Shown here: positions 43,132 through 60,616 of the stretch, piece after piece
Layout of the letters: each line of letters opens with the position of its first letter
How positions within the stretch are numbered: position 1 is the stretch's first letter
Assembly: GCA_965243325.1 (NCBI GenBank)
Contig: CBDEUQ010000003.1
Span: 30,508-94,507, forward strand
DNA length: 64,000 nt
Direction: 5' to 3'
Source of the DNA: Alphaproteobacteria bacterium
GTDB taxonomy: Bacteria; Pseudomonadota; Alphaproteobacteria; UBA7887
Notes under the pieces: model-generated
Seen by the model: the letters and a program-made list of their open reading frames with translations, nothing else
Database searches by the model: none
Told to the model about the DNA's origin: nothing
Translations under genes and position numbers: made by a program

Positions 43132-44316
43132 ATGCCGAAACGGAGCACCCTCAGGCTGACCAAGCGGAGTGTGGACGCGCTCAGGCACGGCGGCAAGGAT
43201 GCGATCTTCTGGGACCGCGATTTGGCCGGCTTCGGTGTGCGCGTCCACGCCACCGGGCGCAGGCTCTGCATCGTCCAGTCGCGGGGGCCGACAGGCCTGA
43301 AGCGGGCCACCCTGGGGCCGGTCGGCGACAGGACCGTCGAGGAGTATCGCCGCGAGGCGGCGGCGGCCATCGACCGCATCAAGCGGGGCGAGGACCCGAG
43401 GCCGCCGGAGCCGGCGCCCGAGCCCACCGTCGCCGATCTGGCGGCGCTCTGCCTGAAGGACCATGTCGCCGCGCGCTGCAAGCCGGCGACGGCGGAGAAC
43501 TACCGGAAGTCCATCGACTGCCACATCCTGCCGGCGCTGGGGCGCAGGGCGTTGAAGGATGTGATGCCCGATGATGTGGCCAAGCTCCATCACCGGCTGC
43601 GCGGCACGCCGGCGGCGGCCAACCAGGCGATCTGGGTGCTCTCGAAGATGTTCTCGCTCGCCGAGAGCTGGGAGATGGTCCCGCCCGGGCGCAACCCGTG
43701 CCGGCATGTCCGCCACTACCGCGCCACACCCCGCGAGCGCTTCCTGACGCCGGACGAGTTCCGGCGCATCGGCGATGCGCTGAAGACCTTCGAGGACAAT
43801 GGCAAGATGCAGCCGTCGGCCATCGCGGCGATCCGCCTCTTGATGCTGACCGGCTGCCGCTCGGACGAGATCCTCACCCTGCAATGGGACGACATCGACC
43901 GCGCGGCGCGGGTCATCCGGCTCCGCGATTCGAAAACGGGGCCGCGCATGGTGCCGCTGACCGCGCCGGTGCTCACGGTGCTGGACCGCATCGAGCGGCA
44001 GGACGGCGTGCCCTGGGTCTTGCGGGGATCGAAGCCGAAGTCCCGTCTCACCTGCCTCTCCTGGCACTGGCGGAAGGTCAGGACGGCGACCGGGCTCAAC
44101 GACGTGCGGCTTCACGACTGCCGGCACAGCTACGCCAGCAGGGCGCTGGCGCTGGGCGAGGGTCTGCCGGTCATCGGGCGCCTGCTCGGCCATGCCAGGG
44201 TCGGCACCACCGCAAAATACGCCCACCTGGTGCGCGACGCCGAGAAGGCGGCCGCCGCCAGGACCGGCGGCAGCATCGCCGCCTGGATCATGCCCGGCGA
44301 CGCCGAGGCGGCGTGA
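43132..44316 (+). CDS. P4-type tyrosine integrase (DUF4102 arm domain plus catalytic domain), first of a tandem pair
   Basis: N-terminal ...LTKRSVDALRHGGKDAIFWDRDLAGFGVRVHATGRRLCIVQ... arm domain; catalytic HDCRHSYASRA...TAKYAHL (R-H-R-Y present). Confidence 0.85.
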   Translation: MPKRSTLRLTKRSVDALRHGGKDAIFWDRDLAGFGVRVHATGRRLCIVQSRGPTGLKRATLGPVGDRTVEEYRREAAAAIDRIKRGEDPRPPEPAPEPTVADLAALCLKDHVAARCKPATAENYRKSIDCHILPALGRRALKDVMPDDVAKLHHRLRGTPAAANQAIWVLSKMFSLAESWEMVPPGRNPCRHVRHYRATPRERFLTPDEFRRIGDALKTFEDNGKMQPSAIAAIRLLMLTGCRSDEILTLQWDDIDRAARVIRLRDSKTGPRMVPLTAPVLTVLDRIERQDGVPWVLRGSKPKSRLTCLSWHWRKVRTATGLNDVRLHDCRHSYASRALALGEGLPVIGRLLGHARVGTTAKYAHLVRDAEKAAAARTGGSIAAWIMPGDAEAA

Positions 44317-44327
44317 GGGGAAGAGCA

Positions 44328-45503
44328 ATGCAGCAGAGGACGATCTCCAACCGCTCCGTGGCCGCCATGACGGTCGAGCGCGACACGGTGTTCTGGGACC
44401 GGACCGTGACCGGCTTCGGGGTCCGGGTCTATCCGACCGGCGGCAAGGTCTACATCGCCCAGGCCAGGGGGCCGGAAGGGCCGAAGCGTGTGACGGTGGG
44501 CCGGCACGGCGTGCTGAATGCCGACGAGGCGCGCCAGAGGGCGGCGCTGATCGTGACGCGCATCAAGGCGGGCGAGGACCCGGTGCCGCTGCCGCTCGCG
44601 GCCCGGGCGAGGGCCAATGGGAGTCCGACCGTGGCCGACCTCGCGGCGCGCTATCTGGCGGATCATGTCGAGGTGCGGCTCAAGCCGCAGACGCGGGCCA
44701 AGACCCGCGGCGTGCTCCGCCGCCACATCCTGCCGGCCCTCGGCAAGCTGCCGGTGGAGACGGTGGAGCGCCGGCACGCGGTCGATCTGCACCGAGGGCT
44801 GAGCGACCGCCCGGTGACGGCGAACCGGGCGGTCAAGACGCTGGCGCACATGTACCGTCTGGGCGAAGGCTGGGGCCTGGTGCCGGCGGGCTGCAACCCG
44901 TGCCGGTCGATCGAGAAGTATCCCGAGCGCGGCCGCGAGCGCTTCCTGACCGACGCCGAGTTCGCCCGGCTCGGGCAAGTGCTGGACGACGCCGTGGACG
45001 CCGGCGCCGTCCCGCCCGTGGCCGCGGCGGCGATCCGCCTGCTGATGCTGACCGGCTGCCGCAAGGGCGAGGTGCTGGCGCTGCGCTGGACGGACGTCGA
45101 TCTCGACGCCGGCGAGCTCCGCCTGCCCGACGCGAAGTCCGGTCCCCGCGCGGTGCAGCTGCCGCCGCCGGCAGTGCGGCTGCTGGACACGCTGCCGCGC
45201 CGGGCGGGCAGCCCGTGGGTGTTTCCGGGCAGGGACCGGGCCGGGCGCTACAGCGCGGGCGGCCTCGACCACGCCTGGCACGCCGTGCGCGAGGCCGCGA
45301 AGCTGGAGGACGTGCGGATCCACGACCTCCGGCACAGCTTCGCTTCGAGAGCGCTGGCGCTCGGCGAGACCCTGCCGGTGATCGGCAAGCTGCTGGGTCA
45401 CAACGACATCGAGACGACCGCGAGATACGCCCATCTGGCGCAGGATTCCGTCCACGAGGCGGCGGAGAGAATCGCTGCCAGCATCGCGGCCGAGATATTG
45501 TGA
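44328..45503 (+). CDS. P4-type tyrosine integrase, second of a tandem pair
   Basis: Starts 11 nt after int1. FWDRTVTGFGVRVYPTGGKVYIAQ arm domain; HDLRHSFASRA...TARYAHL catalytic motif. Confidence 0.85.
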   Translation: MQQRTISNRSVAAMTVERDTVFWDRTVTGFGVRVYPTGGKVYIAQARGPEGPKRVTVGRHGVLNADEARQRAALIVTRIKAGEDPVPLPLAARARANGSPTVADLAARYLADHVEVRLKPQTRAKTRGVLRRHILPALGKLPVETVERRHAVDLHRGLSDRPVTANRAVKTLAHMYRLGEGWGLVPAGCNPCRSIEKYPERGRERFLTDAEFARLGQVLDDAVDAGAVPPVAAAAIRLLMLTGCRKGEVLALRWTDVDLDAGELRLPDAKSGPRAVQLPPPAVRLLDTLPRRAGSPWVFPGRDRAGRYSAGGLDHAWHAVREAAKLEDVRIHDLRHSFASRALALGETLPVIGKLLGHNDIETTARYAHLAQDSVHEAAERIAASIAAEIL

Positions 45504-45672: not shown

Positions 45673-46416
45673 ATGACGTATTTCGCCTATCTCGACGAGT
45701 TCGGCCATGTCGGCCCCTATGTGGCCCGGACCGACCCCAAATTCCGGGAGAGCCCGGTATTCGGCCTCGCCGGCTTCGTCCTGCCGGCCGACGAGGTGCG
45801 CGGCTTCGGGACCTGGTTCTACCAGCGCAAGTGCGAGCTTCTCGCCTTCGAGATCGGGCGGTCGGAAAAACACCCGGCCGAGTGGGAGAAGAAGGGGTCC
45901 AGCCTCTACACGGCGACCAACGTCACCCGCTATCCCGAGCTGCGCCGGTTCACCAACCGGCTGCTGAACAGGATCGAGGCGCTCGGCGGGTTCGTCCTCC
46001 ATGTCGGGATACGCAAGACGGGCTCTCCGGAGAGGCACGATCCCAACCGCCTCTATGCGCGGGTGTTTCTGGAGGCGATCAAGCGGATCGACCAGTTCTG
46101 CGCCGTCGACTGCGATCCGCCGGAGGAGTTCGTGCTGATCCTCGACGAGCACAACCAGCGCCCGGCGCTGGTCGCGCAGGCCGCGCAGAGCATGTACGCG
46201 CGCACCGAACGGCGACGGCACCTTATCGAGCCGCCGTTCCATGTCGAGAGCCACCGCTACCAGACGCTTCAGGCCGCCGACTGGATCGCGGGTCTGGTCG
46301 GACGCCTGGGCGCGGTCCGGGCCGAACCGGCGGTCTGGCCGGAGAACGAGGTCTTCCGCCGGTATTTCGAGCACCGCATCAACCGCGTCAGCCGCCGCAG
46401 CGGTATCCGCCGCTGA
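45673..46416 (+). CDS. DUF3800 domain-containing protein
   Basis: N-terminal MTYFAYLDEFGH (YxDESG-like) and C-terminal HVESHRYQTLQAADWIAG are the two DUF3800 signature blocks. Confidence 0.6.
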   Translation: MTYFAYLDEFGHVGPYVARTDPKFRESPVFGLAGFVLPADEVRGFGTWFYQRKCELLAFEIGRSEKHPAEWEKKGSSLYTATNVTRYPELRRFTNRLLNRIEALGGFVLHVGIRKTGSPERHDPNRLYARVFLEAIKRIDQFCAVDCDPPEEFVLILDEHNQRPALVAQAAQSMYARTERRRHLIEPPFHVESHRYQTLQAADWIAGLVGRLGAVRAEPAVWPENEVFRRYFEHRINRVSRRSGIRR

Positions 46417-47094: not shown

Positions 47095-47439
47095 ATGAGC
47101 GCGGCATTCGCGATTCCCCGCAACACGGCCTCGACGTTCCTCACCCATTTCTTCGGCAGCGGCCTCTCCGACGACACCTATGTCGTGGAGCGGTTCAAGG
47201 CGATGGTGGACGGCGACATCCGCCGTTGCGCCGACCGGCAGCCCGCGGCGAAGACGGGTACGACGAAGACGGGCCGGCGCAAGACGAAGGACGCCACCGT
47301 CACCCGCAAGGCGGTGCAGGATCTGCGTCCGGCCCGCACCGAGATCATCGTCTGCACCGGGCTCAAGACCCGGGGCGGGGTGCAGATCTGGGGCGACATC
47401 GCCTGCGGACTTTTCCACGACCGCAAGCAGAAGGGCTGA
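47095..47439 (+). CDS. hypothetical protein (114 aa)
   Basis: In-frame ATG inside longer ORF 46585..47439; no recognised domain. Confidence 0.35.
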   Translation: MSAAFAIPRNTASTFLTHFFGSGLSDDTYVVERFKAMVDGDIRRCADRQPAAKTGTTKTGRRKTKDATVTRKAVQDLRPARTEIIVCTGLKTRGGVQIWGDIACGLFHDRKQKG

Positions 47440-47548: not shown

Positions 47549-48154
47549 ATGGCTCGACGCGACATCGACGAGCGGCTGGACAGGCGGCGGCGGCGCAACC
47601 TGGACCGCTACCATCGGCGCGTTGCCGAACGCCGGGAGCGCGGCCTGTGCATCAAGTGCGGCCAGCGCCCGCCCGCGCCGGAGCGCAGCATCTGCGCACC
47701 CTGCGGCGAGAAGGCCAGGGCCTCCGAGCGTGCCCGCGCCGCTCGGCTCCGGGCCGAGGGCAAGCCGGTGCGCGATCCCGAAGCCAGACGCTGGGCCGAC
47801 CGCGAGCGCGACCGCCGCCAGCACGCCGAGCGCCGGGCCGCCGGCATTTGCGTCAAGTGCGGCCGGGTCCCGGCGCTCCCGGAGCGGACCCAGTGCGGGC
47901 CTTGCGCCGAACGGCGTCTGGCCGCCGACCGCGCCCGTCACGCCAGAGCGAGAGCCGAGGGCAGGCCGCCGCGCAATTCGGAAGCCAGTCGACTGGCCGA
48001 CCGCGAGCGCTGCCGCCGCCGTCGGGTCGAACGCCGGGCGGCCGGGCTGTGCATCCGCTGCGGGACCCTCTCGCCCGAAGCGGGTCGGTCGATGTGCGAG
48101 CCCTGCCGCGACGACCGGGATTACACGGTCAACTGCACGCTCAAGATGCGTTGA
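47549..48154 (+). CDS. Arg-rich protein with 3 tandem Cys4 zinc-ribbon modules (family member 1)
   Basis: RBS GGAAGGGGG. Three repeats of ...ERRxxGLCxKCGxxPxxPERxxCxPC...: CIKCG...CAPCGEK, CVKCG...CGPCAER, CIRCG...CEPCRDD. Lacks the C-terminal domain of members 2 and 3. Confidence 0.6.
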   Translation: MARRDIDERLDRRRRRNLDRYHRRVAERRERGLCIKCGQRPPAPERSICAPCGEKARASERARAARLRAEGKPVRDPEARRWADRERDRRQHAERRAAGICVKCGRVPALPERTQCGPCAERRLAADRARHARARAEGRPPRNSEASRLADRERCRRRRVERRAAGLCIRCGTLSPEAGRSMCEPCRDDRDYTVNCTLKMR

Positions 48155-48170
48155 GGGTCGGCGGTTTCGG

Positions 48171-48476
48171 GTGACGCACCCGTTTCATCCTCTTCACGGG
48201 CGCGAGTTCGAGCTGATTGAGAACTGGACGATCATGGGAGTGGCGTGGCTTCGATACCCAAGTGACGACGGGACGCTGCGCAGCATCCGACAGGCTTGGA
48301 CCAGCGTAGCGGACGAGGATCCGTTTGTGCGCGTGTCGGCGGGCCGGTCGGCGTTCCGCCTCTCGGACCTGTTTGCGCTGGCGGCATTGCTGGACAGCCT
48401 GGATGGGGACGACCGCACCGTGCGGGAGAACGATAACGGGGCGGAGACTGTCAAGGAGATTTTGCCGAATGTGTAA
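48171..48476 (+). CDS. hypothetical protein (101 aa)
   Basis: GTG start just after the stop of the preceding gene; no recognised domain. Confidence 0.35.
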   Translation: MTHPFHPLHGREFELIENWTIMGVAWLRYPSDDGTLRSIRQAWTSVADEDPFVRVSAGRSAFRLSDLFALAALLDSLDGDDRTVRENDNGAETVKEILPNV

Positions 48477-48583
48477 GAATGTTTTTGCACATAAACGGGG
48501 AATACAGGGCATCTTGACGGCCAGGAAGACGGCGTCTTCTGGCTATTATGTGAAGTATAGCATGGAGTTTCCGATCATAAAGA

Positions 48584-48620
48584 GGAAGAAAGGGGTTGAT
48601 ACGGCGTTGGGAATGTGCAT
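48584..48620 (+). promoter_or_regulatory. sigma-70-like promoter in an AT-rich patch upstream of the HTH - ORF - serine recombinase operon
   Basis: TTGATA-N17/18-ATAAAT/TAAATA inside a locally AT-rich about 180-bp segment that also holds the palindrome GAAGACggcGTCTTC (48519-48533). Confidence 0.4.
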
Positions 48621-48658
48621 AAATATACTTACATTCCTTTTCCGACGGAGCCCGCGCC

Positions 48659-49117
48659 ATGGCCAGACGCCCCGCCGACGCCAAGACCCGCGCCCTCAAG
48701 GAGCATGGCTGCCTGAACCCGAACGCGGAGGCGGTGCGCGACGAGCTGTTCGTGTCCAATGCGTTCTTCGACCCGCGCGATCTGCTCCAGGTCAAGTACG
48801 AGATGCTGCGCCGGGTGCGCGAAGACGGCGTGCCAGTGAGCCACGCCGCCGCCAGCTTCGGCGTCTCGCGGCCGACCTGGTATCAGGCGCAGCGCGCATG
48901 GGAGGCCGGCGGCCTGCCGGGCCTGCTGCCGGACCGGCCGGGACCGCGCCGGCCCCACAAGCTCAGCGACGAGGTGGTCGAGGCGCTGCGGGCGGCGAAG
49001 AGCGAACGGCCGGAGCTGACCGCCGCCGAGATGGTCGAGCTGGTGCGCGACCGCTTCGGCGTCTCGGTCCATCGCAGCAGCATCGACCGCGCCCTGGCGC
49101 GGGGAAAAAAACGATGA
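48659..49117 (+). CDS. helix-turn-helix protein with IS630/IS481-type winged-HTH N-terminal domain (no DDE domain)
   Basis: …AASFGVSRPTWYQAQRAWEAGGLPGLLPDRPGPRRPHKLSDEVVEALRAA...ELTAAEMVELVRDRFGVSVHRSSIDRAL... follows the HTH-tnp pattern; only 152 aa. Confidence 0.55.
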   Translation: MARRPADAKTRALKEHGCLNPNAEAVRDELFVSNAFFDPRDLLQVKYEMLRRVREDGVPVSHAAASFGVSRPTWYQAQRAWEAGGLPGLLPDRPGPRRPHKLSDEVVEALRAAKSERPELTAAEMVELVRDRFGVSVHRSSIDRALARGKKR

Positions 49118-49419
49118 CGATGCACAACCCACCCTGCACCGCGCTCCCGGCGGCGGAGCCTTCGGCCTACGGACAGGGGTACGAACGGATGCGCCGTCAT
49201 GCCGTCGAGCCCGGCGCCGTCCACGACCGCCACGGAAGCGGCGTGGTGGCGTTGCGCGGCGTCGCGGCCTGGCTGCATGCCTTCGCCGCGCTGCCCGCCC
49301 CGCCGGCGGCCGCGTGCGCGGGGGCCGCGCCCGGGCCGTTGCCCACCGGGGTCGAGACGTCGGCGATCGACATTCTGATCGCCATGCTCAACGGCCATAT
49401 GGAAGGAAAGCCGGCATGA
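49114..49419 (+). CDS. hypothetical protein (101 aa), translationally coupled between the HTH gene and the serine recombinase
   Basis: ATGA overlap at both ends (49114-49117 and 49416-49419). Confidence 0.45.
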   Translation: MTMHNPPCTALPAAEPSAYGQGYERMRRHAVEPGAVHDRHGSGVVALRGVAAWLHAFAALPAPPAAACAGAAPGPLPTGVETSAIDILIAMLNGHMEGKPA

Positions 49420-51437
49420 GCAGCGCCCATCAGAAGGTGGATACGGGCCATCTGAGCCGCGATGCCTACTTGTACGTGCGCCAGTCAAGCCTGCAGCAGG
49501 TGTTCGACCATGGCGAGAGCACGCGCCGCCAGTACGCGCTGCGGGAGCGCGCCGTGGCGCTGGGCTGGCCGACCGAGAACATCGTCGTGATCGACCGCGA
49601 TCTCGGCCTCTCTGGCGCCGACAGCGACCGCGAGGGGTTCCAGCACCTGGTCGCCGAGGTCGGCATGGGCCGGGCCGGCATCGTGCTCGGGCTCGAGGTC
49701 AGCCGTCTCGCGCGCAACTCCACCGACTGGCATCGGCTGATCGAGCTCTGCGCGCTGAGCGAGACACTGATCCTCGACGAGGACGGCGTCTACGATCCCG
49801 TCGACTTCAATGACCGGCTCCTGCTGGGGCTTAAAGGCACGATGAGCGAGGCAGAGCTGCACATGATGCGCGCCCGGCTGCGCGGCGGGACGCTCAACGC
49901 GGCCAAGCGCGGGGAGTTGAAGCTTCCTCTGCCGGTGGGGCTGGTCTACGACCCGCTCGACCAGGTGGTGCTCGACCCCGACGAACAAGTGCAGCACGGC
50001 CTGCGCCTGCTGTTCGACACCTTCACCCGGACCGGCTCCGCGCAGGCCACGGTGAAGCACTTCAACAGAGAGAAGCTGCTGTTCCCCCACCGTCCTCTCA
50101 GCGGACCGCAAAAGGGCGAGCTGCATTGGAAGCGGCTGAAGTTCTCGCAGGTGATCAACACGCTGCACAACCCGCGATACGCCGGTGCCTTCGCGTACGG
50201 CCGCACCCGGCGCCGCCGGCGGCCCGGCGGCGGTGTCGAGCACAGGCGCCTGGCGCGCGAGGAATGGACGGTGCTGTTGCGCGACGCGCACCCGGGCTAC
50301 ATCACCTGGGAGCGGTTCGAGGAGAACGAACTGCAACTCCGGAACAATGCGCAATCCTACGAAGCGAAGCGCCGCAGCCCCCCGCGCGAGGGACCGGCAC
50401 TGCTGCAGGGCCTGGCCATCTGCGGCGTCTGCGGCCGGAGCATGACGGTCCGCTACCGCACCCGTAAAGGACGGCAATATCCCGATTATGTGTGCCAGAG
50501 AGAAGGGATCGAGACAGCGAGCGGCAGCGTGTGTCAGGGCGTATCGGGCGGCGCCATCGATCGCGCGGTCGGCGAGCTGCTGGTGGAACTGGTGACACCG
50601 CTCACGCTGGACGTCGCGCTCCAAGTGCAGAACGAGCTCACGGCCCGCGCCGAGGAGGCCGATTTATGGCGTTCCCAACAGGTGCAGCGCGCCCGCGAGG
50701 AAGCGGACTTGGCGAGGCAACGGTTCATGCAGACCCATCCCGACAACCGGATGGTCGCCGACGTGCTGGAGGCGGAATGGAACGCGAAACTCCGGGCCCT
50801 GGACGAGGCGCAGCACGAGCTCGATCGCAGCCGCGCCGAGCCTGACCGGGGGTTGGACGATGAGCAACGAAAGCGAGTGCTTGAGCTGGCCAGAGACTTC
50901 CCCCGCCTGTGGAACGATCCGGCGACGCCGCACCGCGAGCGCAAGCGGATGGCGCGGCTGCTGATCGAGGACGTGACGCTGACCAAGGCCACGCGGAGCC
51001 TGGGAGTGCGCCTGCGCGGCGGCGCGACCAGAGAGCTCATCTGGACGCCGGATCCACGCGTGTATGAAATCCGCAGGACCAGCGATGAGATCGTTGCCGA
51101 GATCGACAGGCTGTTGGATGACCACACGGATGGCGAGATTGCGTCGATCCTCAATACGCGCGGATCCCGAACCGGGCATGGCCATGCCTTTACCCCGAAG
51201 CTGGTGACAGCAACCCGCCACAATCGGTCTCTCAGGTCACGCTACGAGCGGCTTCGCGATCGTGGGCTGTTGACGATCCATGAGGCCGCCGACCGGCTCA
51301 CCGTCTCGATCCGCACCATCAAAAAATGGCGCAGGGCCGGGCGTCTGCGCGGTTATGCCTACAACGACAGACCGGAATACCTGTTCGAGGTTCCCGATCT
51401 CCCGCCGACCAGGCAGGCAAGTCGATGCGGCCCGTGA
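49416..51437 (+). CDS. large serine recombinase (resolvase/invertase N-domain, recombinase domain, zinc ribbon, coiled coil)
   Basis: N-terminal YLYVRQSSLQQ...S...Q (catalytic Ser), ...GLKGTMSEAELHMMRARLRGG..., zinc ribbon LAICGVCGRSMTVRYR...YVCQ..., long C-terminal coiled coil; 673 aa. Confidence 0.85.
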   Translation: MSSAHQKVDTGHLSRDAYLYVRQSSLQQVFDHGESTRRQYALRERAVALGWPTENIVVIDRDLGLSGADSDREGFQHLVAEVGMGRAGIVLGLEVSRLARNSTDWHRLIELCALSETLILDEDGVYDPVDFNDRLLLGLKGTMSEAELHMMRARLRGGTLNAAKRGELKLPLPVGLVYDPLDQVVLDPDEQVQHGLRLLFDTFTRTGSAQATVKHFNREKLLFPHRPLSGPQKGELHWKRLKFSQVINTLHNPRYAGAFAYGRTRRRRRPGGGVEHRRLAREEWTVLLRDAHPGYITWERFEENELQLRNNAQSYEAKRRSPPREGPALLQGLAICGVCGRSMTVRYRTRKGRQYPDYVCQREGIETASGSVCQGVSGGAIDRAVGELLVELVTPLTLDVALQVQNELTARAEEADLWRSQQVQRAREEADLARQRFMQTHPDNRMVADVLEAEWNAKLRALDEAQHELDRSRAEPDRGLDDEQRKRVLELARDFPRLWNDPATPHRERKRMARLLIEDVTLTKATRSLGVRLRGGATRELIWTPDPRVYEIRRTSDEIVAEIDRLLDDHTDGEIASILNTRGSRTGHGHAFTPKLVTATRHNRSLRSRYERLRDRGLLTIHEAADRLTVSIRTIKKWRRAGRLRGYAYNDRPEYLFEVPDLPPTRQASRCGP

Positions 51438-51473
51438 CGAAAGCCGAAATCTGCCCCGGTGTTCGACGGAATA

Positions 51474-52355
51474 ATGGAGGTGCAGTATGCAGCATGCTTC
51501 CGGCGGGCCGCGAAACGCCTGCGCCGCGCCGAGCGCCGGGCCGCCGGCCTCTGCGAAACCTGCGCGGCGCCCGTGACCGGCAGGGCGGCCTATTGCGACT
51601 CCTGCGCCGCCGCCCGGAACGAACGGCGGCAGCGCAATCCGGAGCCGGCGCGCGAGGCCGACCGCCGACGCTATGCCGAGCGGCGCAAACGGGGCGACTG
51701 CACGAGCTGCGGCAAGCCGGTCCAGGGGACGGCCGAGTGCCGGACGTGCCGCGACGCTCACCGGGCACGCTACGACTCCCGCCGGGCCGCCGGGGTCTGC
51801 GTCAAGTGCCGGACCCCCACCGACGGCGGCGCGGCCTACTGCGATCCCTGCGCCGCCGCCAAGGCCGCGAGCCGCGACCGCGACCGCGCGGCGGAATACG
51901 CGGCCAGGCGCCGGCGGTATGCCGAACGGCGGGCGAAGGGGCGCTGCGTCGCGTGCAACGCGCCATCGCCGGACGCGGCGCGCTGCAAACCTTGTGCGGC
52001 CGTCAACGCCGGGCAGCGTGATCGTGAGGCGGAGAAAGCCGCCCGGCGCCGGCGGTATGCCGAGCGGCGGGCGAAGGGACGCTGTGTCGAGTGCGACGCG
52101 CCGTCGCCCGGGGCGGCGCGGTGCGAGCCCTGTTCCCTCCGGCACCGCGAGCGCTCGGGAGCGTTCCGCGGCATCCCGCTATGGGACCCGAGCTGGACGG
52201 TGATCGAGATCGCCACCGGGGTCTGTCACGGCACCTATGACAGCGAGATGGAGGTCGCGGCCTGTCTCGCCTTCGCCAGGCTCTCGCGCGACGAGGTCGA
52301 GGTGATCGCCGACGCCAGCCCGATGGCGGGTTTCATTGCGCCCGGTTGGCAGTGA
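51474..52355 (+). CDS. Arg-rich protein with 5 tandem Cys4 zinc-ribbon modules plus a conserved C-terminal domain (family member 2)
   Basis: Repeats RRRYAERRAKGRCVACNAPSP.AARCKPC... (the last two nearly identical at DNA level), then C-terminal ...FRGIPLWDPSWTVIEIATGVCHGTYDSEMEVAACLAFARLSRDEVEVIADASPMA... Confidence 0.6.
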   Translation: MEVQYAACFRRAAKRLRRAERRAAGLCETCAAPVTGRAAYCDSCAAARNERRQRNPEPAREADRRRYAERRKRGDCTSCGKPVQGTAECRTCRDAHRARYDSRRAAGVCVKCRTPTDGGAAYCDPCAAAKAASRDRDRAAEYAARRRRYAERRAKGRCVACNAPSPDAARCKPCAAVNAGQRDREAEKAARRRRYAERRAKGRCVECDAPSPGAARCEPCSLRHRERSGAFRGIPLWDPSWTVIEIATGVCHGTYDSEMEVAACLAFARLSRDEVEVIADASPMAGFIAPGWQ

Positions 52356-52425
52356 TGAGCGGGGAGATCCCTGCTGCGTCGCCGGCCCGCCGCCCGCAAT
52401 TCAGCACGACAGGAAGGACACCGCG

Positions 52426-53574
52426 ATGACCGCGAAGGACATCGACACGCTGCGCGCCGAATATCGCGAACGCTACCACCGCCGCACCGCCGAGCGCCGT
52501 TCGAAGGGCCTCTGCGTGCATTGCGGCGAGCGTCCGCCCAAACCCGGCCGCAGCCGGTGCGAGCCGTGCGCGGCCAAGAAGCGGCCGGCCCACCGCGCCC
52601 GCTACCATCGCCGCACCGCCGAGCGCGTCGCGCGGGGGCTCTGCCCGAAATGCGGCAAGCGCCCGCCCGCGCCGGAGCGCAGCCAGTGCGCGCCCTGCCT
52701 GGAGAAGGACGCCGCCGCCGGCCGGGCCCGGGACGCGAGGCTCAGGGCCGCCGGCATCCCGCGCCGCGATCCGGCCAAGGCCGCCGAGTACGAGCGCGGG
52801 CGCAACCGCCGCCGGGCCGAGTACCGCCGCGCCAGGGGGCTGTGCGCCGCCTGCGGCAAGTCCCCGCCGGCGCCTGGCCGCGTGTCCTGCGAGCCGTGCC
52901 TGGAGACGCGCCGCGCGCAGGACCGCGCGAAATACGCGGCCGGCAAGGCGGCGGGCAAGCTCTACGGCGGGGCCGATCCCGAGGCTTGCCGCAAGGCCGC
53001 CCGCGCCCGCAGCCGGCGGCGGAGGAAAGCCTGGATCGAGGCCGGGCTCTGCGTCCGCTGCGGCGCGACACCGGAGGTCGAGGGCAGCACGAACTGCGAG
53101 GCCTGCAAGCAGAAAAGCCGGGCCAGGGGCCGCCGCAAATACGCCGAACGGCGCGCCGCCGGGCTCTGCACCAAGTGCGGAAGCCCCGCTTTCGACGGCC
53201 TGGCCTATTGCGGCGCCTGCGCCGCCATCCGCGAGGTCCAGCGGCCGCCGGAGGTCAAGAACGCCCAGTCCCGGCGGCGATACGCCGAACGGCGCGCCCG
53301 CGACCGGTGCACCGACTGCGGCGCGCCGTCCCAGGGCGCCTCGCGCTGCGTGCCGTGCGCGGAACGCTCGCACCACCGCTCGACATACTTCAAGGGCATC
53401 CCGATCTGGGACCCGAGCTGGACCGTGATCGAGATCGCCACCGGCGAGGCGCTCGGCACCTTCGACAGCGAGGCCGACGTGGCGCTCTGCCTCGCCTTCG
53501 AGAAGCTGGCGCGCGACCAGGTCGAGGTAATCGCCGACATCAGCCCGATGGCGATGCACACGAGCTGGACCTGA
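52426..53574 (+). CDS. Arg-rich protein with 7 tandem Cys4 zinc-ribbon modules plus the same C-terminal domain (family member 3)
   Basis: RBS AGGAAGGA; repeats ...RRTAERxxxGLCxxCGxRPPxPxRSxCxPC...; C-terminal ...FKGIPIWDPSWTVIEIATGEALGTFDSEADVALCLAFEKLARDQVEVIADISPMA... shared with member 2. Confidence 0.65.
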   Translation: MTAKDIDTLRAEYRERYHRRTAERRSKGLCVHCGERPPKPGRSRCEPCAAKKRPAHRARYHRRTAERVARGLCPKCGKRPPAPERSQCAPCLEKDAAAGRARDARLRAAGIPRRDPAKAAEYERGRNRRRAEYRRARGLCAACGKSPPAPGRVSCEPCLETRRAQDRAKYAAGKAAGKLYGGADPEACRKAARARSRRRRKAWIEAGLCVRCGATPEVEGSTNCEACKQKSRARGRRKYAERRAAGLCTKCGSPAFDGLAYCGACAAIREVQRPPEVKNAQSRRRYAERRARDRCTDCGAPSQGASRCVPCAERSHHRSTYFKGIPIWDPSWTVIEIATGEALGTFDSEADVALCLAFEKLARDQVEVIADISPMAMHTSWT

Positions 53575-53739
53575 CCGGATCGCCGGCCCCGGCCGCCTAG
53601 CCGGGGAACGGGCGCGGCGGGGTCTCCCCGCTGCGCTGCCGGCCCGCCGTCCGCCGGTAATCGACGCGCCGGCCTTCTCGACATGCGTATAGCCGGCCGG
53701 GCGCCCGCCGGCCCGACCCCAACCGAAGGAGCTTTCACT

Positions 53740-54006
53740 ATGACCGCCTGCATCCCCGACGATCCCGCCTATTGCTTCTGTCCGATTGCGGAAGAGGACG
53801 GCGAACCGCCGCAGATTCGCATTTTGGTGGAAGGTCTCATCTTCGCCATCCCCACCGCGCTGGTCGCCCTCGACCGCGAGCAGGGGCTCGACGTGTGCGA
53901 CCGGTTGAACCGGGCGCTCGGTCTCGATCGCGCCTCCTGGACCGCGCTGGCCGCGCGCTGCCTGCGCGCCGGCGCCGGCGGCATGAACGGCAGCACCGTG
54001 CACTGA
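53740..54006 (+). CDS. hypothetical protein (88 aa)
   Basis: RBS GAAGGAG upstream of the ATG; no recognised domain. Confidence 0.35.
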   Translation: MTACIPDDPAYCFCPIAEEDGEPPQIRILVEGLIFAIPTALVALDREQGLDVCDRLNRALGLDRASWTALAARCLRAGAGGMNGSTVH

Positions 54007-54211: not shown

Positions 54212-54457
54212 ATGTTCCTGTCCGACCATTCCCCCGACCTTCCCGCCGGCAGCCTGCTGCTGGCCGAGCTGGGGATCGACCCGGCCGCCGTCCGCGAGGC
54301 GATCGAGGACGAGCGCGCGATGCGGTGCCCCGAGCGACCGGCGATCTATCCCGAGCACGGTTTCGCCGGCCTCTTCCCGGAACCGGCGGTGGGCGGTTTC
54401 GGCGAGGCGGTGCCGGACGAGCCCTGGGACCCGGCGTCGTCGCTCCCTCCGGCGTGA
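54212..54457 (+). CDS. hypothetical protein (81 aa)
   Basis: Strong RBS GAAGGAGG; acidic small protein. Confidence 0.4.
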   Translation: MFLSDHSPDLPAGSLLLAELGIDPAAVREAIEDERAMRCPERPAIYPEHGFAGLFPEPAVGGFGEAVPDEPWDPASSLPPA

Positions 54458-54573
54458 TGGAGGTGGAGGAGGGCTTGGAGAAGGTGAGCGGCGGGGGGCC
54501 GGGGGGAGAGATCGTCCCGGCTTCCCGTCGTTCGCAAACCATCGTCAGAATCCTGAGCCACAAGGAGATAGCA

Positions 54574-55041
54574 ATGGCTTTCGGAAAGAACTACGCGGAA
54601 ATCGTCGGACACCTCGGCGGCGATGTCGTCATCAACCATCTCGCCTCGGGCGGGCGCGTCGCGAACTTGAGCGTGGCGACCGACGAGTCCTATTTCGACC
54701 GCGCCGGCCAGAAGGTCGACCAGACCGAGTGGCATCGCGTCGTCACCTTCCAGGACGGGCTGATCGACATGCTGGAGCGGCACGCCAGGAAGGGCCGGCT
54801 TATCAGCGTCGAGGGCAAGCTGCGGACGCGGCGCTGGAAGAAGGACGGCGACGACTCCTGGCGCTACTCGACCGAGATCCTCGTCGTGCCGGGCGATCGG
54901 GTCCAGTTCTACGACAAGCCGAACCGCGCCAACGGCAACGGCGCCCAGGCCGAGCCCGCTCCGGCGAACGGCGAGGCGATGCCGGCCGGCGGTGACCCTG
55001 CACAGGCCGACGACCTCGGATCGGATCGTATCCCCTTCTGA
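54574..55041 (+). CDS. ssb: single-stranded DNA-binding protein
   Basis: OB-fold N-domain (…WHRVVTFQDGLIDMLERHARKGRLISVEGKLRTRRWKKDG...), Gly/Pro/Ala-rich linker and acidic tail ending DDLGSDRIPF. Confidence 0.8.
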   Translation: MAFGKNYAEIVGHLGGDVVINHLASGGRVANLSVATDESYFDRAGQKVDQTEWHRVVTFQDGLIDMLERHARKGRLISVEGKLRTRRWKKDGDDSWRYSTEILVVPGDRVQFYDKPNRANGNGAQAEPAPANGEAMPAGGDPAQADDLGSDRIPF

Positions 55042-55074
55042 GCCGGTTCCCCTCCCTCCCAACTCGGGCGGCCG

Positions 55075-55100
55075 TTTCGGCGGTCGTCCTTTTTTTCTGC
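55075..55100 (+). terminator. weak terminator-like hairpin plus T7 run after ssb
   Basis: GCCGtttCGGC followed by CCTTTTTTTC. Confidence 0.3.
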
Positions 55101-56138: not shown

Positions 56139-57068
56139 ATGAACATCATCGAGAACATCGACACCATCGAAGCCGGCGGGCAGTCCGCCACCGCGACCGC
56201 CTGCGAGCACGCTGCCCTCTTCGGCGCGACCCCCGAGCGGGACGAGTTCGACACCCGGGACGTCTGGGACGCCGACGAAGCGATCTGCGCCATGCAGGAA
56301 GCCTTCGGGCTCCTCGCCGACGCCGTCGCACCGGACGGGTTCCAGCTCGCCGACGAACGCGAGAGCCTGCTGTGGGGCTTCGTCAACATGCTCGACGCCC
56401 AGACCAACCGCCTCGACCGCGCCGCCGACAAGCTGATGCCCGAGCTGCGCGATCTCCAGCGCGAGCAGGACGGCACCGAGATCAAGTCGTTCGAGCTGGA
56501 ACTGAAGACCGACCGCGCGCAGAACCTCACCGCGCGCCGCGATGCCTTCGAGACCCTGCGCGACGCAGCCGCCGAGAGCTACCGCGACGCCACCGGCACC
56601 ACCTGGCGGCCCCGGCGCGGATCGCACGTCTCGCAGACCGGCACGCTCACCTCCGCCGCCATCGACGCCCGCGACTTCGCCCGCGCGAGGCAGGACCGCA
56701 AGACCGCCGCGCACCTGCCGCAGGGCACCCTGGTCGCCATCGCGGGCGGCAAGGACGTGACCGACCCCGGCGCGGTGATCGACATGCTCGACAGGACCCG
56801 CGCCAAGCACGCCGACATGGTGCTCGTCCACGGCGGCGGCCCCGGCGTCGAGAAGATCGCCGCGCGCTGGGCCGAGCGCAACGGCGTCCACCAGGTCGTC
56901 TGCAAGCCGGACTGGGACCGCCACGGACGCGCCGCCCCGTTCCGCCGCAACGAGGAACTGCTCAACCTCCTGCCGAAGGGCGTCATCGCGTTCCCCGGCA
57001 GCGGCATCACCGAGAACCTCGTGGACCGCGCGCGGCAGCTCGGCATCCCAGTCTGCCGCGCGAGCTGA
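56139..57068 (+). CDS. DUF2493 (SLOG / DprA-LOG-like Rossmann) domain protein with an uncharacterised N-terminal region
   Basis: C-terminal ...LVAIAGGKDVTDPGAVIDMLDRTRAKHADMVLVHGGGPGVEKIAARWAERNGVHQVVCKPDWDRHGRAAPFRRNEELLN...VIAFPGSGITENLVDRARQLGIPV matches DUF2493. Confidence 0.55.
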   Translation: MNIIENIDTIEAGGQSATATACEHAALFGATPERDEFDTRDVWDADEAICAMQEAFGLLADAVAPDGFQLADERESLLWGFVNMLDAQTNRLDRAADKLMPELRDLQREQDGTEIKSFELELKTDRAQNLTARRDAFETLRDAAAESYRDATGTTWRPRRGSHVSQTGTLTSAAIDARDFARARQDRKTAAHLPQGTLVAIAGGKDVTDPGAVIDMLDRTRAKHADMVLVHGGGPGVEKIAARWAERNGVHQVVCKPDWDRHGRAAPFRRNEELLNLLPKGVIAFPGSGITENLVDRARQLGIPVCRAS

Positions 57069-57857
57069 CCGCAGCGTCTCGCGGGCCGCGTCGTCATCCC
57101 CGGCAACGGACGATGGCGGCGCGGCCCGTTTTCGCGTGCGCACATCGGGGCTGCGGCCACGCTCCCCCTCGCGCGCGCTTTGCGCGACGCTCGTGCTCCG
57201 GCTCGCCGCGCTCGCCGATCGCCGGTGCGTTCGCTGCCGCTCGCACCGATGCGCTCGCGCTGCGCCTCCCGCCGTCGGCTCCGCCGACCCGCCGGTCGGC
57301 AATCGCGTCGTCCGCCTTCGCACCACGCTTCGCATGAGTGCTTCGGCTACTGCGCCGATCATCGTGCACGACACGATGCACGGCGTCGGCGCTGGTGACC
57401 ATGATTGCGATCATCGCGCGCGTCGCCATTGCCGGCTTCGCCGTCATCAGCCTCCGCAGTCGCGGGCGTGCTCGTGCAGCGCCCGCCGCCGATGCCGCCG
57501 TCACCGCGCTCGACACTTCGTCCCTCCGTCGTGTCGCCGACGATGCCCACTCAAGCGCCGTGGCGGCTCCGATCCGCCGCTCTCGCCGGCTCCGATTCCC
57601 CATCGAAAATACTGCCCCGTTCGGCTCTGTCTCTACGGCGGAGCCGGCGATTTCTCACACCTGCCGCAGACTTCTGCATTGAGCGAGCCCTGACCGGCCT
57701 TCCCGATAGAACGATTTCCGTCGTTGTTTCAGACCGTTAGGCGCAATCCCGCCTGACCCGCGATCCCGCGCGCGGTCCCCGTCTCCTTCCTCAAAACGCC
57801 GTCCTTGTTCCCTGCGAACGGGGCTGCATCCGAGGGAACAGACCGGGAGACCGCGCC

Positions 57858-59009
57858 ATGCGCATCTACGCCACCGTCAACGACCGGACCGCGCGCCGAA
57901 GTTTCAGGGAACAGAAACACCGCAAGCGCCCGCTGACCGTGCTGGACCATACGCTGCCCGCCTTCGGCTTCAACATCGCCGCCGACGATACGCGGACGTA
58001 TTTCGTCCGTGTCGTCCGCAAGCTGGGCGCGGACAACATCGCCCTCGGCAAGACCACGGAAACGACCGCCAACGAGGCGCGGGCGAAGGCCGTCACCGAG
58101 ATCGAGGCGGCGCAGGTCGAGCGCAAGGCCGGGCCGCTGATGCGCGACTTCGCCGACGAGTTCATCCGCCGCCGCGCCCATCGCTGGAAGCCGTCCACCC
58201 GGAAGAGCAATCTTTACCTGCTGGGGCGATACATCCTTCCCCCGCTTGGCGGACTGCGGGTCGCGGCGATAACCCGCGCCGACGTGCGGCGCTGGTTCGA
58301 TTCCATGAGCGGCACCCCCGGCGTCGCCAACCGCACCCTGCCGGTGTTGTCGTCGATGATGACCGCCGCCGAGCTTTGGGATATCCGGCCCCAGGGCTCC
58401 AATCCCTGTCGCAACATGCGCCGCTACAGGACCGCCCCGCGCGAGCGCTTCCTGTCGGCGGACGAGTTGAAGCGCCTCGGCTTCGTGCTCGACCACGCCG
58501 AGGACCGGCAGGCCGCCGCCGCGATCCGGCTGCTGCTGTTCACCGGGGCGCGGTCGTCGGAGATCGCCGGGCTCAGGTGGGACTGGATACGCGAGACCCG
58601 CGCGGTGCTGCCGGACTCGAAAACGGGGCCGAAGACGATCCAGCTTCCCGCGCCCGCGCGGGCCGTGCTCGCGAGCCTGCCGCGCGATGGCGCGTTCGTA
58701 TTTCCCAGCCGGAAGGGCGACGGGCCGATGGCCGACCTTGCCAAGCGCTGGCTCAAGCTCCGCGCGCTCGCCGGGCTGGAGGACGTGCGCATCCATGATA
58801 CCCGCCACACATACGCCTCCCATGCGGTGATGGGCGGCCTCGACCTCTACACCGTGGGCCGGTTGCTGGGCCATGCCGATACCGGCTCGACCGAGCGCTA
58901 CGCCCATCTTGCCGACGGGCATTTCCGCGAGGCGGCGGGACGGATTTCCGGGATCGTCGGTGGTGCGCTGGCCGGTGGCCGGAAGCGGGAGGCGGATCAT
59001 GGCGAATAG
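57858..59009 (+). CDS. tyrosine integrase with a divergent N-terminal arm region, first of the second tandem pair
   Basis: Catalytic domain with HDTRHTYASHA...TERYAHL; the N-terminus (MRIYATVNDRTARRSFREQKHRK...) is atypical or shortened. Confidence 0.75.
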   Translation: MRIYATVNDRTARRSFREQKHRKRPLTVLDHTLPAFGFNIAADDTRTYFVRVVRKLGADNIALGKTTETTANEARAKAVTEIEAAQVERKAGPLMRDFADEFIRRRAHRWKPSTRKSNLYLLGRYILPPLGGLRVAAITRADVRRWFDSMSGTPGVANRTLPVLSSMMTAAELWDIRPQGSNPCRNMRRYRTAPRERFLSADELKRLGFVLDHAEDRQAAAAIRLLLFTGARSSEIAGLRWDWIRETRAVLPDSKTGPKTIQLPAPARAVLASLPRDGAFVFPSRKGDGPMADLAKRWLKLRALAGLEDVRIHDTRHTYASHAVMGGLDLYTVGRLLGHADTGSTERYAHLADGHFREAAGRISGIVGGALAGGRKREADHGE

Positions 59010-60183
59010 GACCGGGAAGACACGGCTCAAGGTCGCGGCCATCGCCGCCGCGAGGCCGAAGGCGCGCGAATACACGCTCTGGGACGGAACGCTCAGGAGC
59101 TTCGGGCTGCGGGTCCAACCCTCCGGCGCGAAGTCGTTCATCGTCCAGACCCGCGCGCGGGGCCGGATGCGCAAGATCACGCTCGGGCGATTCCCGGACA
59201 TGAGCCTCGCCGACGCGCGCACGGAGGCCGCCGCTGTCCTCGCCCGTATCTGGGCGGGCGAGGACTTGGCCCCGCCGCGCAAGGTCAAGGCCCCCGTGTT
59301 CCGCGACTTCGCCGCGCGCTACCGGGAGCGGCGCAAGGACGTGTGGAAGCCGTCCTCGCTGGAGACCTTCGACATCTACATGCGAGGTCGGCTCCTGCCC
59401 GCCTTCGGACGGTTCAAACTCGACACCATCGACCATGCGCGGGTCTCGGCGTGGTTCGATGCGGCGAGCGAGGAGCGCCCCGGCGCGGCCAACCGGGCGT
59501 TCGACATCCTGCGCGCCATGCTCAAGACCGCGCGGCAGTGGGGCGAACTCGGCGAGCATGTCCCCGACGCCTGCGCCAATATCACGGTGAACCCGAAGAA
59601 GCCCGTCGCCCGCTATCTCGACAAGGACGAGATCGCCCGACTCGGCGCGGCGCTGGACCGGCACGCCGGGGACCGCCCCTGGCACGTGGCGGCGCTGCGC
59701 TTGCTGGCGCTGACCGGGGCGCGGCTCTCCGAAGCGGTCAACCTGCGGTGGGACGAGATCGCCGCCCTGTCCGAAGACGGCGCGAGCGCGCGCATCGAGG
59801 ACTCCAAGACCGGCCCGCGCACGATCTGGCTCGGGCCGGAAGCGGCGAAGCTGGTGGCGGCGCTGCCGCGCACGGGAGGGGCGGAGCGCGTGTTTCCCGA
59901 AAACCTTACCACGTCGAGGCTCTACGACTTCTGGTGCCGTGTCCGGGAGGAGGCGGGGCTGTCCGGTCTCCGCATCCATGACTGCCGCCACACATGGGCC
60001 TCGCAGGGCATCATGAACGGCGTGGGTCTCCCCACCGTCGGGCGGTTGCTCGGACACAGGCGGCTGGCCACCACCGCGATCTACGCCCATCTCGACGACA
60101 ACGCCTTGCAGGCTGCCGCCGAGAAGGCGGCGAGCCGAATCGCGAAGGCAATGGGGTTCGAAGCCGAGCCGTCACCGCTATAA
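58999..60183 (+). CDS. P4-type tyrosine integrase, second of the second tandem pair (overlaps the previous gene by 11 nt)
   Basis: …LKVAAIAAARPKAREYTLWDGTLRSFGLRVQPSGAKSFIVQ... arm domain; HDCRHTWASQG...TAIYAHL catalytic motif. Confidence 0.85.
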   Translation: MANRTGKTRLKVAAIAAARPKAREYTLWDGTLRSFGLRVQPSGAKSFIVQTRARGRMRKITLGRFPDMSLADARTEAAAVLARIWAGEDLAPPRKVKAPVFRDFAARYRERRKDVWKPSSLETFDIYMRGRLLPAFGRFKLDTIDHARVSAWFDAASEERPGAANRAFDILRAMLKTARQWGELGEHVPDACANITVNPKKPVARYLDKDEIARLGAALDRHAGDRPWHVAALRLLALTGARLSEAVNLRWDEIAALSEDGASARIEDSKTGPRTIWLGPEAAKLVAALPRTGGAERVFPENLTTSRLYDFWCRVREEAGLSGLRIHDCRHTWASQGIMNGVGLPTVGRLLGHRRLATTAIYAHLDDNALQAAAEKAASRIAKAMGFEAEPSPL

Positions 60184-60209
60184 CGGAGATACGCGAGACG
60201 GGCATCACT

Positions 60210-60554: not shown

Positions 60555-60569
60555 TATGCGCCCCCTCCA

Positions 60570-60616
60570 TTGGAGCATTTACTCCAAATAGAGTAATCTC
60601 AAATCCAATGCATTGG
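60570..60616. promoter_or_regulatory. pair of palindromic operator-like sites
   Basis: TTGGAGcatttaCTCCAA (60570-60587) and the perfect palindrome CCAATGCATTGG (60605-60616), directly upstream of the minus-strand gene 60210..60554. Confidence 0.4.

Follow-up and report, generated by a model that had tools for sequence, protein, structure and literature searches.

The 64,000-nucleotide stretch analyzed here (hereafter the window; positions 30,508 to 94,507 of the forward strand of contig CBDEUQ010000003.1, assembly GCA_965243325.1, Alphaproteobacteria bacterium) carries two tandem paralogous genes, termed ZA and ZB, that encode arginine-rich proteins with eight and six Cys4 modules, respectively. 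A first-pass annotation of the same DNA had described three paralogous genes with three, five and seven modules, but its members 1 and 2 both derive from ZA, as the 5′ and 3′ halves on either side of an inserted mobile element with a large serine recombinase. There is very little doubt about the anatomy of the locus as a set, namely the ZA/ZB tandem pair with its acidic α/β C-terminal domain, the splitting of ZA at a CCGG sequence by a 3,385-bp element, the specialization of a sub-clade of such elements on Z genes, and the placement of the Z block in an integrative conjugative element (ICE) of the MobF type. The fuller account, which joins the two Z genes, the split ZA and the ICE setting to a role of the Z proteins as establishment factors, is probably the best explanation of the locus as a whole.

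ZA, a gene in two halves, and its intact paralogue ZB

The three open reading frames (ORFs) of the first-pass annotation (47549..48154, 51474..52355 and 52426..53574, forward strand) are indeed present and translate to 201, 293 and 382 amino acids with 6, 10 and 12 CxxC motifs, equivalent to three, five and six Cys4 modules, so that the seven modules ascribed to ORF3 reduce to six. When ORF1 and ORF2 are concatenated, the product is colinear from end to end with intact proteins of 463 and 467 amino acids, leaving only 21 junction residues unmatched. ORF1 ends with ...CEPCRDDR^DYTVNCTLKMR followed by a stop codon (the caret marks the boundary with the insert) and ORF2 starts with MEVQYAACF^RRAAKRLRRAERRAAGLC, while the intact relatives read ...CEPCRDDRRAADRARHAERRAAGLC across the same junction. 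The last 11 codons and the stop of annotated ORF1, which extends to 48154, are read from the insert, and the annotated ATG of ORF2 (51474) also lies inside it, with no Shine-Dalgarno sequence ahead of it. By contrast, the true starts at 47549 and 52426 are both preceded by the Shine-Dalgarno sequence AGGAAGG, which lies 7 nt from the ATG at 47549.

The uninterrupted allele of ZA is found in a related locus, L001, which served as the reference for the empty site. There the two flanks of the window abut with a 4-bp overlap, such that the CCGG seen in the window at both 48115-48118 and 51500-51503 occurs once. In silico removal of 48119-51503 (3,385 bp) generates an in-frame ORF of 473 amino acids with eight modules and the C-terminal domain, which finds the 467-residue proteins with 81% identity over 97% of its length. 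The locus is therefore composed of the ZA 5′ half (47549..48118, forward strand; three Cys4 modules, matching residues ~51-231 of the intact 463/467-residue relatives), the ZA 3′ half (51504..52355, forward strand; five modules and the C-terminal domain, colinear with the C-terminal half of the intact relatives) and ZB (52426..53574, forward strand), an intact paralogue of 382 amino acids with six Cys4 modules and an acidic C-terminal domain of ~60 residues. Through the insertion, a single gene takes on the look of a small paralogue plus a gene with an odd start codon, which sets a trap for automated gene calling in these metagenome-assembled genomes (MAGs). Indeed, the right end of the element (51474-51503) supplies an in-frame ATG, ATGGAGGTGCAGTATGCAGCATGCTTCCGG, to the downstream ZA half in the orientation seen in the window, and member 2 is for this reason called as a gene that looks complete; at inverted copies of the element the called downstream protein begins later (260 amino acids). 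In L001, a reverse transcriptase gene of a group II intron (RVT_1, GIIM; L001:11485-13002, minus strand) lies in the 2-kb gap between ZA and ZB, representing a second, unrelated mobile element nested in the Z operon.

Each unit of the three ORFs consists of an Arg-rich helix, a CxxC motif, 9-11 residues and a second CxxC motif, with Arg making up 17-27% of the proteins and net charges of +25 to +43. The Cys4 unit of the repeated module described by the first-pass annotation is thus real, but the long consensus given for it does not hold, since the four Cys are the only invariant residues among 14 aligned modules and the PPxPxRS segment is confined to some of them. The consensus of the modules reads R-A-R-x-R-R-R-x-A-x-R-R-A-A-G-L-C-x-x-C-G-x-x-P-P-x-x-G-x-x-x-C-x-P-C. 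Adjacent modules at ~51.88-52.15 kb, which had been considered near-identical at the DNA level (51.89-52.15 kb), share only 79-81% identity (81% over 117 nt), and the remaining module pairs 44-77%. The C-terminal domain that ORF2 and ORF3 were said to share extends over 177 nt with 79% identity, and its absence from member 1 is explained by the latter being the 5′ half of the split ZA. The N-terminal modules (47578-48063 and 52572-52772) follow a 201-nt (67-residue) super-repeat of helix, Cys4 knuckle, helix and G-x-P-R-R-D-P turn, whereas the C-terminal modules have a period of 138-147 nt and lack this turn, so that the array comprises two kinds of unit. The turn segments rank among the best-conserved parts of the Z protein.

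The inserted serine-recombinase element

The element (48119..51503, forward strand, 3,385 bp) is bounded on the left by the CCGG core of the left junction (attL, 48115..48118) and on the right by the CCGG at 51500-51503, and CCGG bounds the element in all four copies known. It carries four genes on the forward strand: a DUF5372 gene (48150-48476), an HTH_32 gene (48659-49117), ORF101 (49114-49419), which encodes 101 amino acids, and the gene of a large serine recombinase of 673 amino acids (49416-51437), which the first-pass annotation had correctly placed between ORF1 and ORF2. The recombinase matches the Pfam families Resolvase (69 bits), Recombinase (53 bits) and Zn_ribbon_recom (35 bits), all over cutoff, while its best NCBIfam match, XisF, reaches 91 bits and is far under the cutoff of 375. 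Either DUF5372, the HTH protein or ORF101 might act as a recombination directionality factor, which at present is a guess; no paper mentioning DUF5372 was found in the literature.

An identical recombinase protein is encoded by three copies in the related MAG GCA_965243375.1, and all three match the window copy with 100.0% identity over the entire 3,389 bp of the element (0/3,389 nt differ). Each of these copies is bounded by CCGG and interrupts a different Z paralogue at the homologous point ...MCEPCR(D/K/E)D^RR(A/Q)AKR..., and in silico excision regains a full-length ORF with the C-terminal domain at three of three sites. The MAG copies are inverted relative to the window. The ZA halves of the window and of this MAG, by comparison, differ at 12/570 and 15/849 nt (27/1,419; ~98% identical). 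Since the element is unchanged where its flanks have diverged, and is oriented differently, either the insertions are recent and took place independently, or a re-inversion of the element has occurred.

The junction of the reconstructed circle (attP, aataatggaggtgcagtatgcagcatgcttCCGGgattacacggtcaactgcacgctcaagatg) is symmetric, consisting of TGCAGT, 13 nt, CCGG, 13 nt and ACTGCA, with 13 of the 26 flanking positions being symmetric, and the reconstructed attB reads tcggtcgatgtgcgagccctgccgcgacgaCCGGcgggccgcgaaacgcctgcgccgcgccgagcg. The recombinase presumably integrates a circular form of the element through attP into an attB inside a Z gene. An intact attB was present only in L001 and L005 among 89 loci, and no second attB was found in the window. 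In serine integrases, the central dinucleotide alone sets the orientation of insertion (PMC3783163 and its references 43-44). The core of the element is palindromic and would have CG as its central dinucleotide, permitting insertion either way; both orientations are therefore predicted, as observed. Overall, the insert appears to be a serine-recombinase element that is active and site-specific, with Z genes as its target.

Relatives of the recombinase extend well beyond Z loci. A scan of JGI metagenomes for exact matches to the left end of the element returned 0 matches. A metagenome scan with the recombinase revealed 80 relatives with 58-89% identity, 62-73 of which are accompanied by the same four-gene unit of DUF5372, HTH, ORF101 and recombinase; this unit is also present on plasmid 2 of Aromatoleum EbN1. 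About 10 of the 17 closest relatives (≥77% identity) have Z-gene halves in their flanks, sometimes together with the Z-linked gene U or SSB (see below), whereas relatives with ≤73% identity do not. The points of insertion into Z genes vary among these relatives: ...ERYHRRTADRR^AKGLCLKCG in module 1 (L101), ...ERQIAERR^AAGLCPECG in module 3 (L103 and L105), ...RRSEVRR^AAGRCT (L108) and ...CPERK^NARSR (L096-L098). On plasmids, the recombinase family is represented by 525 records with less than 60% identity (rhizobial, Burkholderia, Rhodococcus), and tblastn with ZB found no Z gene in that plasmid collection. As neither the plasmid units nor the metagenomic relatives with ≤73% identity are associated with Z, the targeting of Z genes is a specialization of one sub-clade of these elements.

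The first-pass annotation had listed recombination accessory proteins among the possible roles of the Z proteins. A functional link to the recombinase was not borne out: among 72 Z-bearing loci the recombinase unit is present only in the window and one related MAG, and more than 500 plasmid records carry the recombinase family in a collection where tblastn with ZB found no Z gene. The rarity of the unit at Z loci and its Z-free plasmid family rule out the recombinase as a functional partner, and identify it instead as an invader that uses Z genes as attachment site.

The element shares its domain set with known large serine recombinase systems (phiC31, Bxb1 and A118; SpoIVCA of skin and XisF of the fdxN element; TnpX and TndX), in which attP and attB likewise have only a short core in common, attP is pseudo-palindromic, and insertion inside a coding gene is precise and in principle reversible. 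It differs from them in its size of only 3.4 kb, lacking phage or cargo genes and carrying the fixed trio of DUF5372, HTH_32 and ORF101, in its palindromic CCGG core and occurrence in both orientations and in multiple copies like an insertion sequence, and in its target, a repeat-protein gene on another mobile element that sister variants enter at other positions. The closest analogues are the units of DUF5372, HTH, small ORF and “recombinase family protein” on rhizobial, Burkholderia, Rhodococcus and Aromatoleum plasmids, which have the same order and families, a recombinase 53-58% identical and often several copies in one replicon (up to 12 places), but which occur in the collection where tblastn with ZB found no Z gene; none of these units is known to be experimentally characterized. 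The element thus provides a natural large serine recombinase with defined attP, attB, attL and attR, together with sister variants for other targets and a palindromic core allowing both orientations, and is of interest where new integrases are sought for genome engineering. With its defined sites and specialized target family it is also a cleaner and more testable result than the Z family.

The Z family, its conjugative setting and a possible role

A search with ORF3 revealed a large family of near-constant lengths, in which the 382-residue class extends from 96% down to 58% identity and is joined by classes of ~339, 420 and 463-467 residues. More than 890 homologues were found, and the family is restricted to uncultured Alphaproteobacteria. 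A scan restricted to one genome per species yielded 157 relatives, of which 79 loci were kept; nearly all come from MAGs that carry the label Alphaproteobacteria, Rhodospirillales, Rhodospirillaceae or Defluviicoccus. Many of the bins have names like those of sponge-symbiont bins. Z genes are often multi-copy: several MAGs hold 4-6 loci each, and in that of isolate 0756efc7 (loci L039-L079, e.g. OZ219785-OZ219789) at least 12 Z loci are distributed over five replicons or chromosomes, which is an exceptionally high number of ICE copies or remnants for one genome.

Alignments of 15 and 82 members place each module in its own orthologous position, and the classes differ by loss or gain of whole modules. 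All 24 module Cys are kept across the 82 sequences, 20 being invariant and four present in ≥90%, and the Cys pairs are spaced by 9-11 residues in 1,333 of 1,335 modules. A survey of 212 members found four modules in 7 proteins, five in 32, six in 92, seven in 53 and eight in 28. The copy number has therefore changed during evolution, but the alignments point to discrete and stable classes of 4-8 modules and not to repeats that are actively expanding and contracting. The idea of hyper-variable repeats was likewise rejected, the 382-residue architecture being kept down to 58% identity. The ORFs are also under selection, with a ratio of nonsynonymous to synonymous substitution (dN/dS) of 0.22-0.40 in five comparisons that include the repaired ZA, and with a higher GC content at third than at second codon positions (GC3 > GC2). 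Together with the Shine-Dalgarno sequences this argues against untranslated or frame-disrupted genes, apart from the split ZA.

An AlphaFold2 model of ZB built from 82 sequences is confident (mean predicted local distance difference test score, pLDDT, 89.6), with a predicted template-modelling score (pTM) of 0.36, as expected for a flexible chain. In the model, a long helix, a Cys4 loop of ~19 residues and a further long helix alternate, some units being joined by the G-x-P-R-R-D-P turn, and the chain ends with a small β-β-α-β-α domain. The charges of the two parts are opposite: the array of ZA carries +60 and its C-terminal domain -7 (pI 4.1), and the C-terminal domain of ZB has ten acidic and two basic residues. 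A profile of the C-terminal domain matched 213 cluster representatives among 1.84 billion, almost always at the C-terminus of the protein, and zinc modules precede it in all representatives other than frameshifted fragments, mis-called ORFs and deletion products. A profile of the modules alone found two matches in a set of 5.8 billion proteins. In the proteins P0227 and P0328, the N-terminus of the Z-linked protein U is fused to the Z C-terminal domain and all zinc modules are gone, so that they look like internal deletions. Many further C-domain matches are frameshifted fragments, which indicates frequent decay of Z genes.

As the first-pass annotation had stated, the family cannot be assigned to any characterized protein. 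Pfam, NCBIfam, PHROGs and PADLOC gave nothing over threshold for the three ORFs; Pfam DZR and DZR_2 came closest, but with 13-17 bits on all three ORFs, and 17 bits at best for DZR_2, they lie under the cutoff of 27 bits. Profile searches of the PDB with the whole protein and with a single repeat, a check that had been proposed, retrieved generic Cys4 ribbons only, among them the ribosomal proteins eL43 (E = 3.4e-4 for the whole-protein profile) and eL37 (E = 0.027, with a shared spacing of CxxC-x11-CxxC). Membership in eL37 or eL43 was rejected in view of the weak E-values and the generic nature of such ribbons. The Z modules have the CxxC-x9-11-CxxC knuckle and the basic nucleic-acid-binding context in common with generic zinc ribbons (DZR/DZR_2, eL37, eL43), and the same spacing as eL37, but differ in their long flanking Arg-rich helices, the tandem arrangement of 4-8 modules and the private C-terminal domain, and they score under the cutoffs (17 versus 27 bits; E ≥ 3e-4). 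No structural neighbour of Z was found in the PDB.

Further candidates were tried and rejected. The HNH endonuclease 4h9d (E = 0.28-0.77) has a helix, R..IARGICxxCG, that resembles the RR..A.G.CxxCG ahead of the first Cys pair of Z, but the gap of 9-11 residues has no room for the His-Asn-His motif, no His or Asn is kept, and Pfam HNH is not matched. The C4 zinc finger of TraR/DksA requires CxxC-x17-CxxC, which is incompatible with the Z spacing, and Pfam zf-dskA_traR has no match at E ≤ 0.1. The same holds for the ROS_MUCR family of MucR/Ros at E ≤ 0.1, which also lacks a fold match. Known anti-phage defence and anti-defence families gave no PADLOC match and PHROG matches only at E ≥ 0.005 to families of unknown function.

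The setting of the Z genes was derived from neighbourhood counts over the 72 Z-bearing loci and from an unbiased clustering of ORFs over 85 loci. The most tightly linked neighbour is U (47095..47439, forward strand, 114 amino acids), which lies directly upstream of Z, is found at 64 of the 72 loci and has no match in Pfam, NCBIfam or the PDB. Downstream follow, also on the forward strand, S1 (53737-54006) and S2 (54212-54457), which tblastn detects behind Z in 30 and 43 related loci, respectively, and which match no family over cutoff, and SSB (54571..55041; Pfam SSB, E = 1.6e-21), which follows Z in 52-60 related loci. In the window this block is co-oriented, with gaps of 70-205 nt, and its only strong terminator-like hairpin (55066..55089, forward strand; a 10-bp stem followed by T7) is situated directly after SSB. 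This hairpin likely ends a U-ZA-ZB-S1-S2-SSB transcription unit, although terminator-like sites in the region do not exceed the shuffled expectation, which makes it weak evidence.

Across the 85 loci the canonical order is one or more integrases, U, Z, (S1, S2), SSB, (a 96-residue ORF), YAcAr/DUF2493 and a weak NikA/MobA-like ribbon-helix-helix (RHH) protein. Beyond the latter, a relaxase of the MobF family with ~1,090 amino acids (294 bits, cutoff 100) and a coupling protein of the TrwB/TraD type with ~700 amino acids (TrwB_AAD_bind, 473 bits) are encoded on the opposite strand in related loci, and toxin-antitoxin pairs, insertion sequences and restriction-modification cargo surround the Z block. 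Because relaxase and coupling protein sit alongside, the Z block appears to be part of an ICE of the MobF type and to adjoin its DNA-transfer module. ICEs of this family reach 12 or more copies per genome in uncultured Alphaproteobacteria. The view of the first-pass annotation, that these are strongly basic poly-zinc-ribbon proteins of an uncharacterized family on a mobile element, is consistent with the lack of curated matches and with the ICE context.

The leading or establishment region of a conjugative element is a co-oriented island in which genes for SSB, toxin-antitoxin pairs and anti-defence proteins occur alongside many uncharacterized ones (PMC11541004). The Z block resembles such sets (SSB, ArdC, PsiB, orphan methyltransferases, toxin-antitoxin) in being co-oriented, in including an SSB, in having toxin-antitoxin pairs nearby and in lying beside a DNA-transfer module. 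On annotated alphaproteobacterial conjugative plasmids, DUF2493 is the last gene of a co-oriented block that neighbours the tra genes and includes ArdC, ParB, methyltransferase-helicase and toprim, such that the position of Z and SSB is analogous to that of ArdC, ParB and toprim upstream of DUF2493. By contrast, neither the sequence nor the fold of Z is related to known anti-restriction, anti-CRISPR or SOS-inhibitor proteins, and being strongly basic it is no DNA mimic.

A tentative proposal, to which we give less than even weight, is that the Z proteins depend on zinc and bind nucleic acid, most likely DNA, in a multivalent manner, and that they are made together with the SSB of the element and act in transfer or establishment. 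Each Cys4 knuckle would bind zinc and the Arg-rich helices would contact nucleic acid multivalently; together with the co-transcribed SSB, the Z proteins would then act during transfer or during establishment in the new cell, where they could coat, protect or organize the incoming DNA or shield it from host defences, while the acidic C-terminal domain may contact a partner or mask the array for auto-inhibition. The contrast between the charges of array and C-terminal domain, the predicted helix-knuckle-helix repeat, the weak resemblance to the rRNA-binding zinc ribbons eL37 and eL43, and the co-orientation with SSB, across short gaps and with a terminator-like site only behind SSB, speak for this proposal, and the suggestion of the first-pass annotation that the proteins could be nucleic-acid binders or anti-defence factors is still plausible. 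If Z indeed binds and protects transferred DNA, it would be a new kind of player in conjugative establishment, in a lineage without genetics. In either case, Z is an uncharacterized family without a solved structural neighbour that is under purifying selection and linked to the SSB-containing candidate establishment block of ICEs. A bolder and rather unlikely version takes Z for an unrecognized class of establishment factors that coat DNA with SSB, for example shielding it from host nucleases. In this version, miniature serine-recombinase elements would have radiated as a dedicated lineage that parasitizes these genes, or reversibly switches them, with the repeated module DNA providing a family of attachment sites.

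Several observations weigh against a role in establishment by a conjugative element. No relaxase or coupling protein is encoded in the window before the second integrase pair (57858), so that the window copy may be truncated or only mobilizable. In canonical loci, the Z block is positioned beyond the 3′ end of the operon of type IV coupling protein and relaxase, and a leading-region position is putative. Furthermore, tblastn with ZB gave no match in plasmid and phage collections, and dN/dS values of 0.2-0.4 denote only moderate constraint.

Other explanations differ in how much of these data they accommodate. Three independent paralogues with repeats in flux, serving as accessory factors of the recombinase, are very improbable. 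The genes do physically flank the recombinase, one adjacent module pair has ~80% DNA identity, and module number in the family ranges over 4-8, but the L001 empty-site allele and the in-frame repair refute the three-paralogue view, ZB has six modules, modules are positionally orthologous in proteins of stable length, and recombinase and Z mostly occur apart, both at Z loci and on plasmids. Even less credible is that the ORFs are GC-rich repetitive DNA staying open by chance: in a genome of >70% GC, spurious ORFs of great length are to be expected on every strand, yet the dN/dS values, GC3 > GC2, the Shine-Dalgarno sites, the conservation of the 24 module Cys in 82 sequences, the confident AlphaFold2 model and the synteny kept in 72 loci leave this next to no probability. 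That the element is a regulated gene-interrupting switch like the skin (SpoIVCA) or fdxN (XisF) elements would fit with its precise excision restoring the ORF, with XisF as the best NCBIfam match and with ZA halves that have suffered no further damage. However, recent insertion explains the intact halves equally well, and the element exists in several copies that do not differ at all between assemblies (100% identity) and lie in either orientation, while its relatives split Z genes at several sites and occupy unrelated sites on hundreds of plasmids, as expected for a spreading insertion element; a switch is therefore improbable.

The main competitor for the function of Z is a role as transcriptional regulator or nucleoid-associated silencer of the ICE, with binding to double-stranded DNA that would hold down the genes of the element or adjust the levels of excision and transfer. 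With their individually conserved modules, the very basic Z arrays are reminiscent of zinc-finger arrays that read sequence, xenogeneic silencing in Alphaproteobacteria is a task of the zinc-finger protein MucR, and the equivalent block of pCMU01 contains a MucR-family gene. On the other hand, Z resembles neither MucR/Ros nor HTH regulators in sequence or fold, and it is tightly linked to SSB, a single-stranded DNA protein, and not to integrase or excisionase genes, so that we consider such a role unlikely. Binding to RNA or to the ribosome, for example in remodelling host translation after transfer, receives little credence. The only sequence resemblances, all weak, are to eL43 and eL37, and the Arg-rich helical composition would agree with them, but their E-values are marginal and driven by the Cys pattern, and no ribosomal or RNA-metabolism genes occur in the conserved neighbourhood.

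Further features of the island and its surroundings

The left end of the island is marked by two tandem tyrosine integrase genes (43129-44316 and 44316-45503, forward strand; Pfam Phage_integrase, Arm-DNA-bind_3), in line with the integrase-bounded island noted in the first-pass annotation. Integrase pairs are present 3-10 kb upstream of Z genes in ~40 related loci. Host genes of a TRAP transporter, DctP and DctM, lie upstream of the island at 39.7-42.6 kb. Neither att-type direct repeats at the borders of the island nor a tRNA target turned up when searched for. Rfam returned nothing for 42-64 kb, and a scan for sigma-70 promoters found none, as expected for the GC content. A DUF3800 gene (45673-46416) between the integrases and U has a counterpart in only one other of 81 related loci and is for this reason regarded as variable cargo; sister loci carry HigB/HTH or RelE/antitoxin pairs in its place.

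Downstream of the Z block, a YAcAr/DUF2493 gene of the SLOG family (56139..57068, forward strand; Pfam YAcAr, 84 bits) is shared with 47 related loci. In the sister ICE L002, a block of four genes on the minus strand (AAA_25, AAA_22, a transposase of the rve family and HTH; L002:14520-18514), absent from the window, is inserted between a 145-residue ORF and YAcAr. A conserved non-coding block with GC-rich inverted repeats (57535..57670), detected by blastn in 28 loci, lies between YAcAr and the NikA-like and relaxase genes in intact ICEs and is a candidate oriT, with an unexceptional fold (z = -0.55). A further non-coding block at 57069-57200 is also conserved, the two blocks occurring in 25-28 related loci.

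Homology to the sister ICE stops at 57661, and a further integrase-borne segment with its own cargo begins thereafter with a second pair of tyrosine integrases (57858..60183, forward strand), which suggests tandem accretion of such segments at one site. The window has a GC content of ~70% except for 60200-64000, where it falls to ~58%; in this last part lie ORFs without annotation and a restriction-modification fragment of MmeI-like type, cut off by the end of the window.

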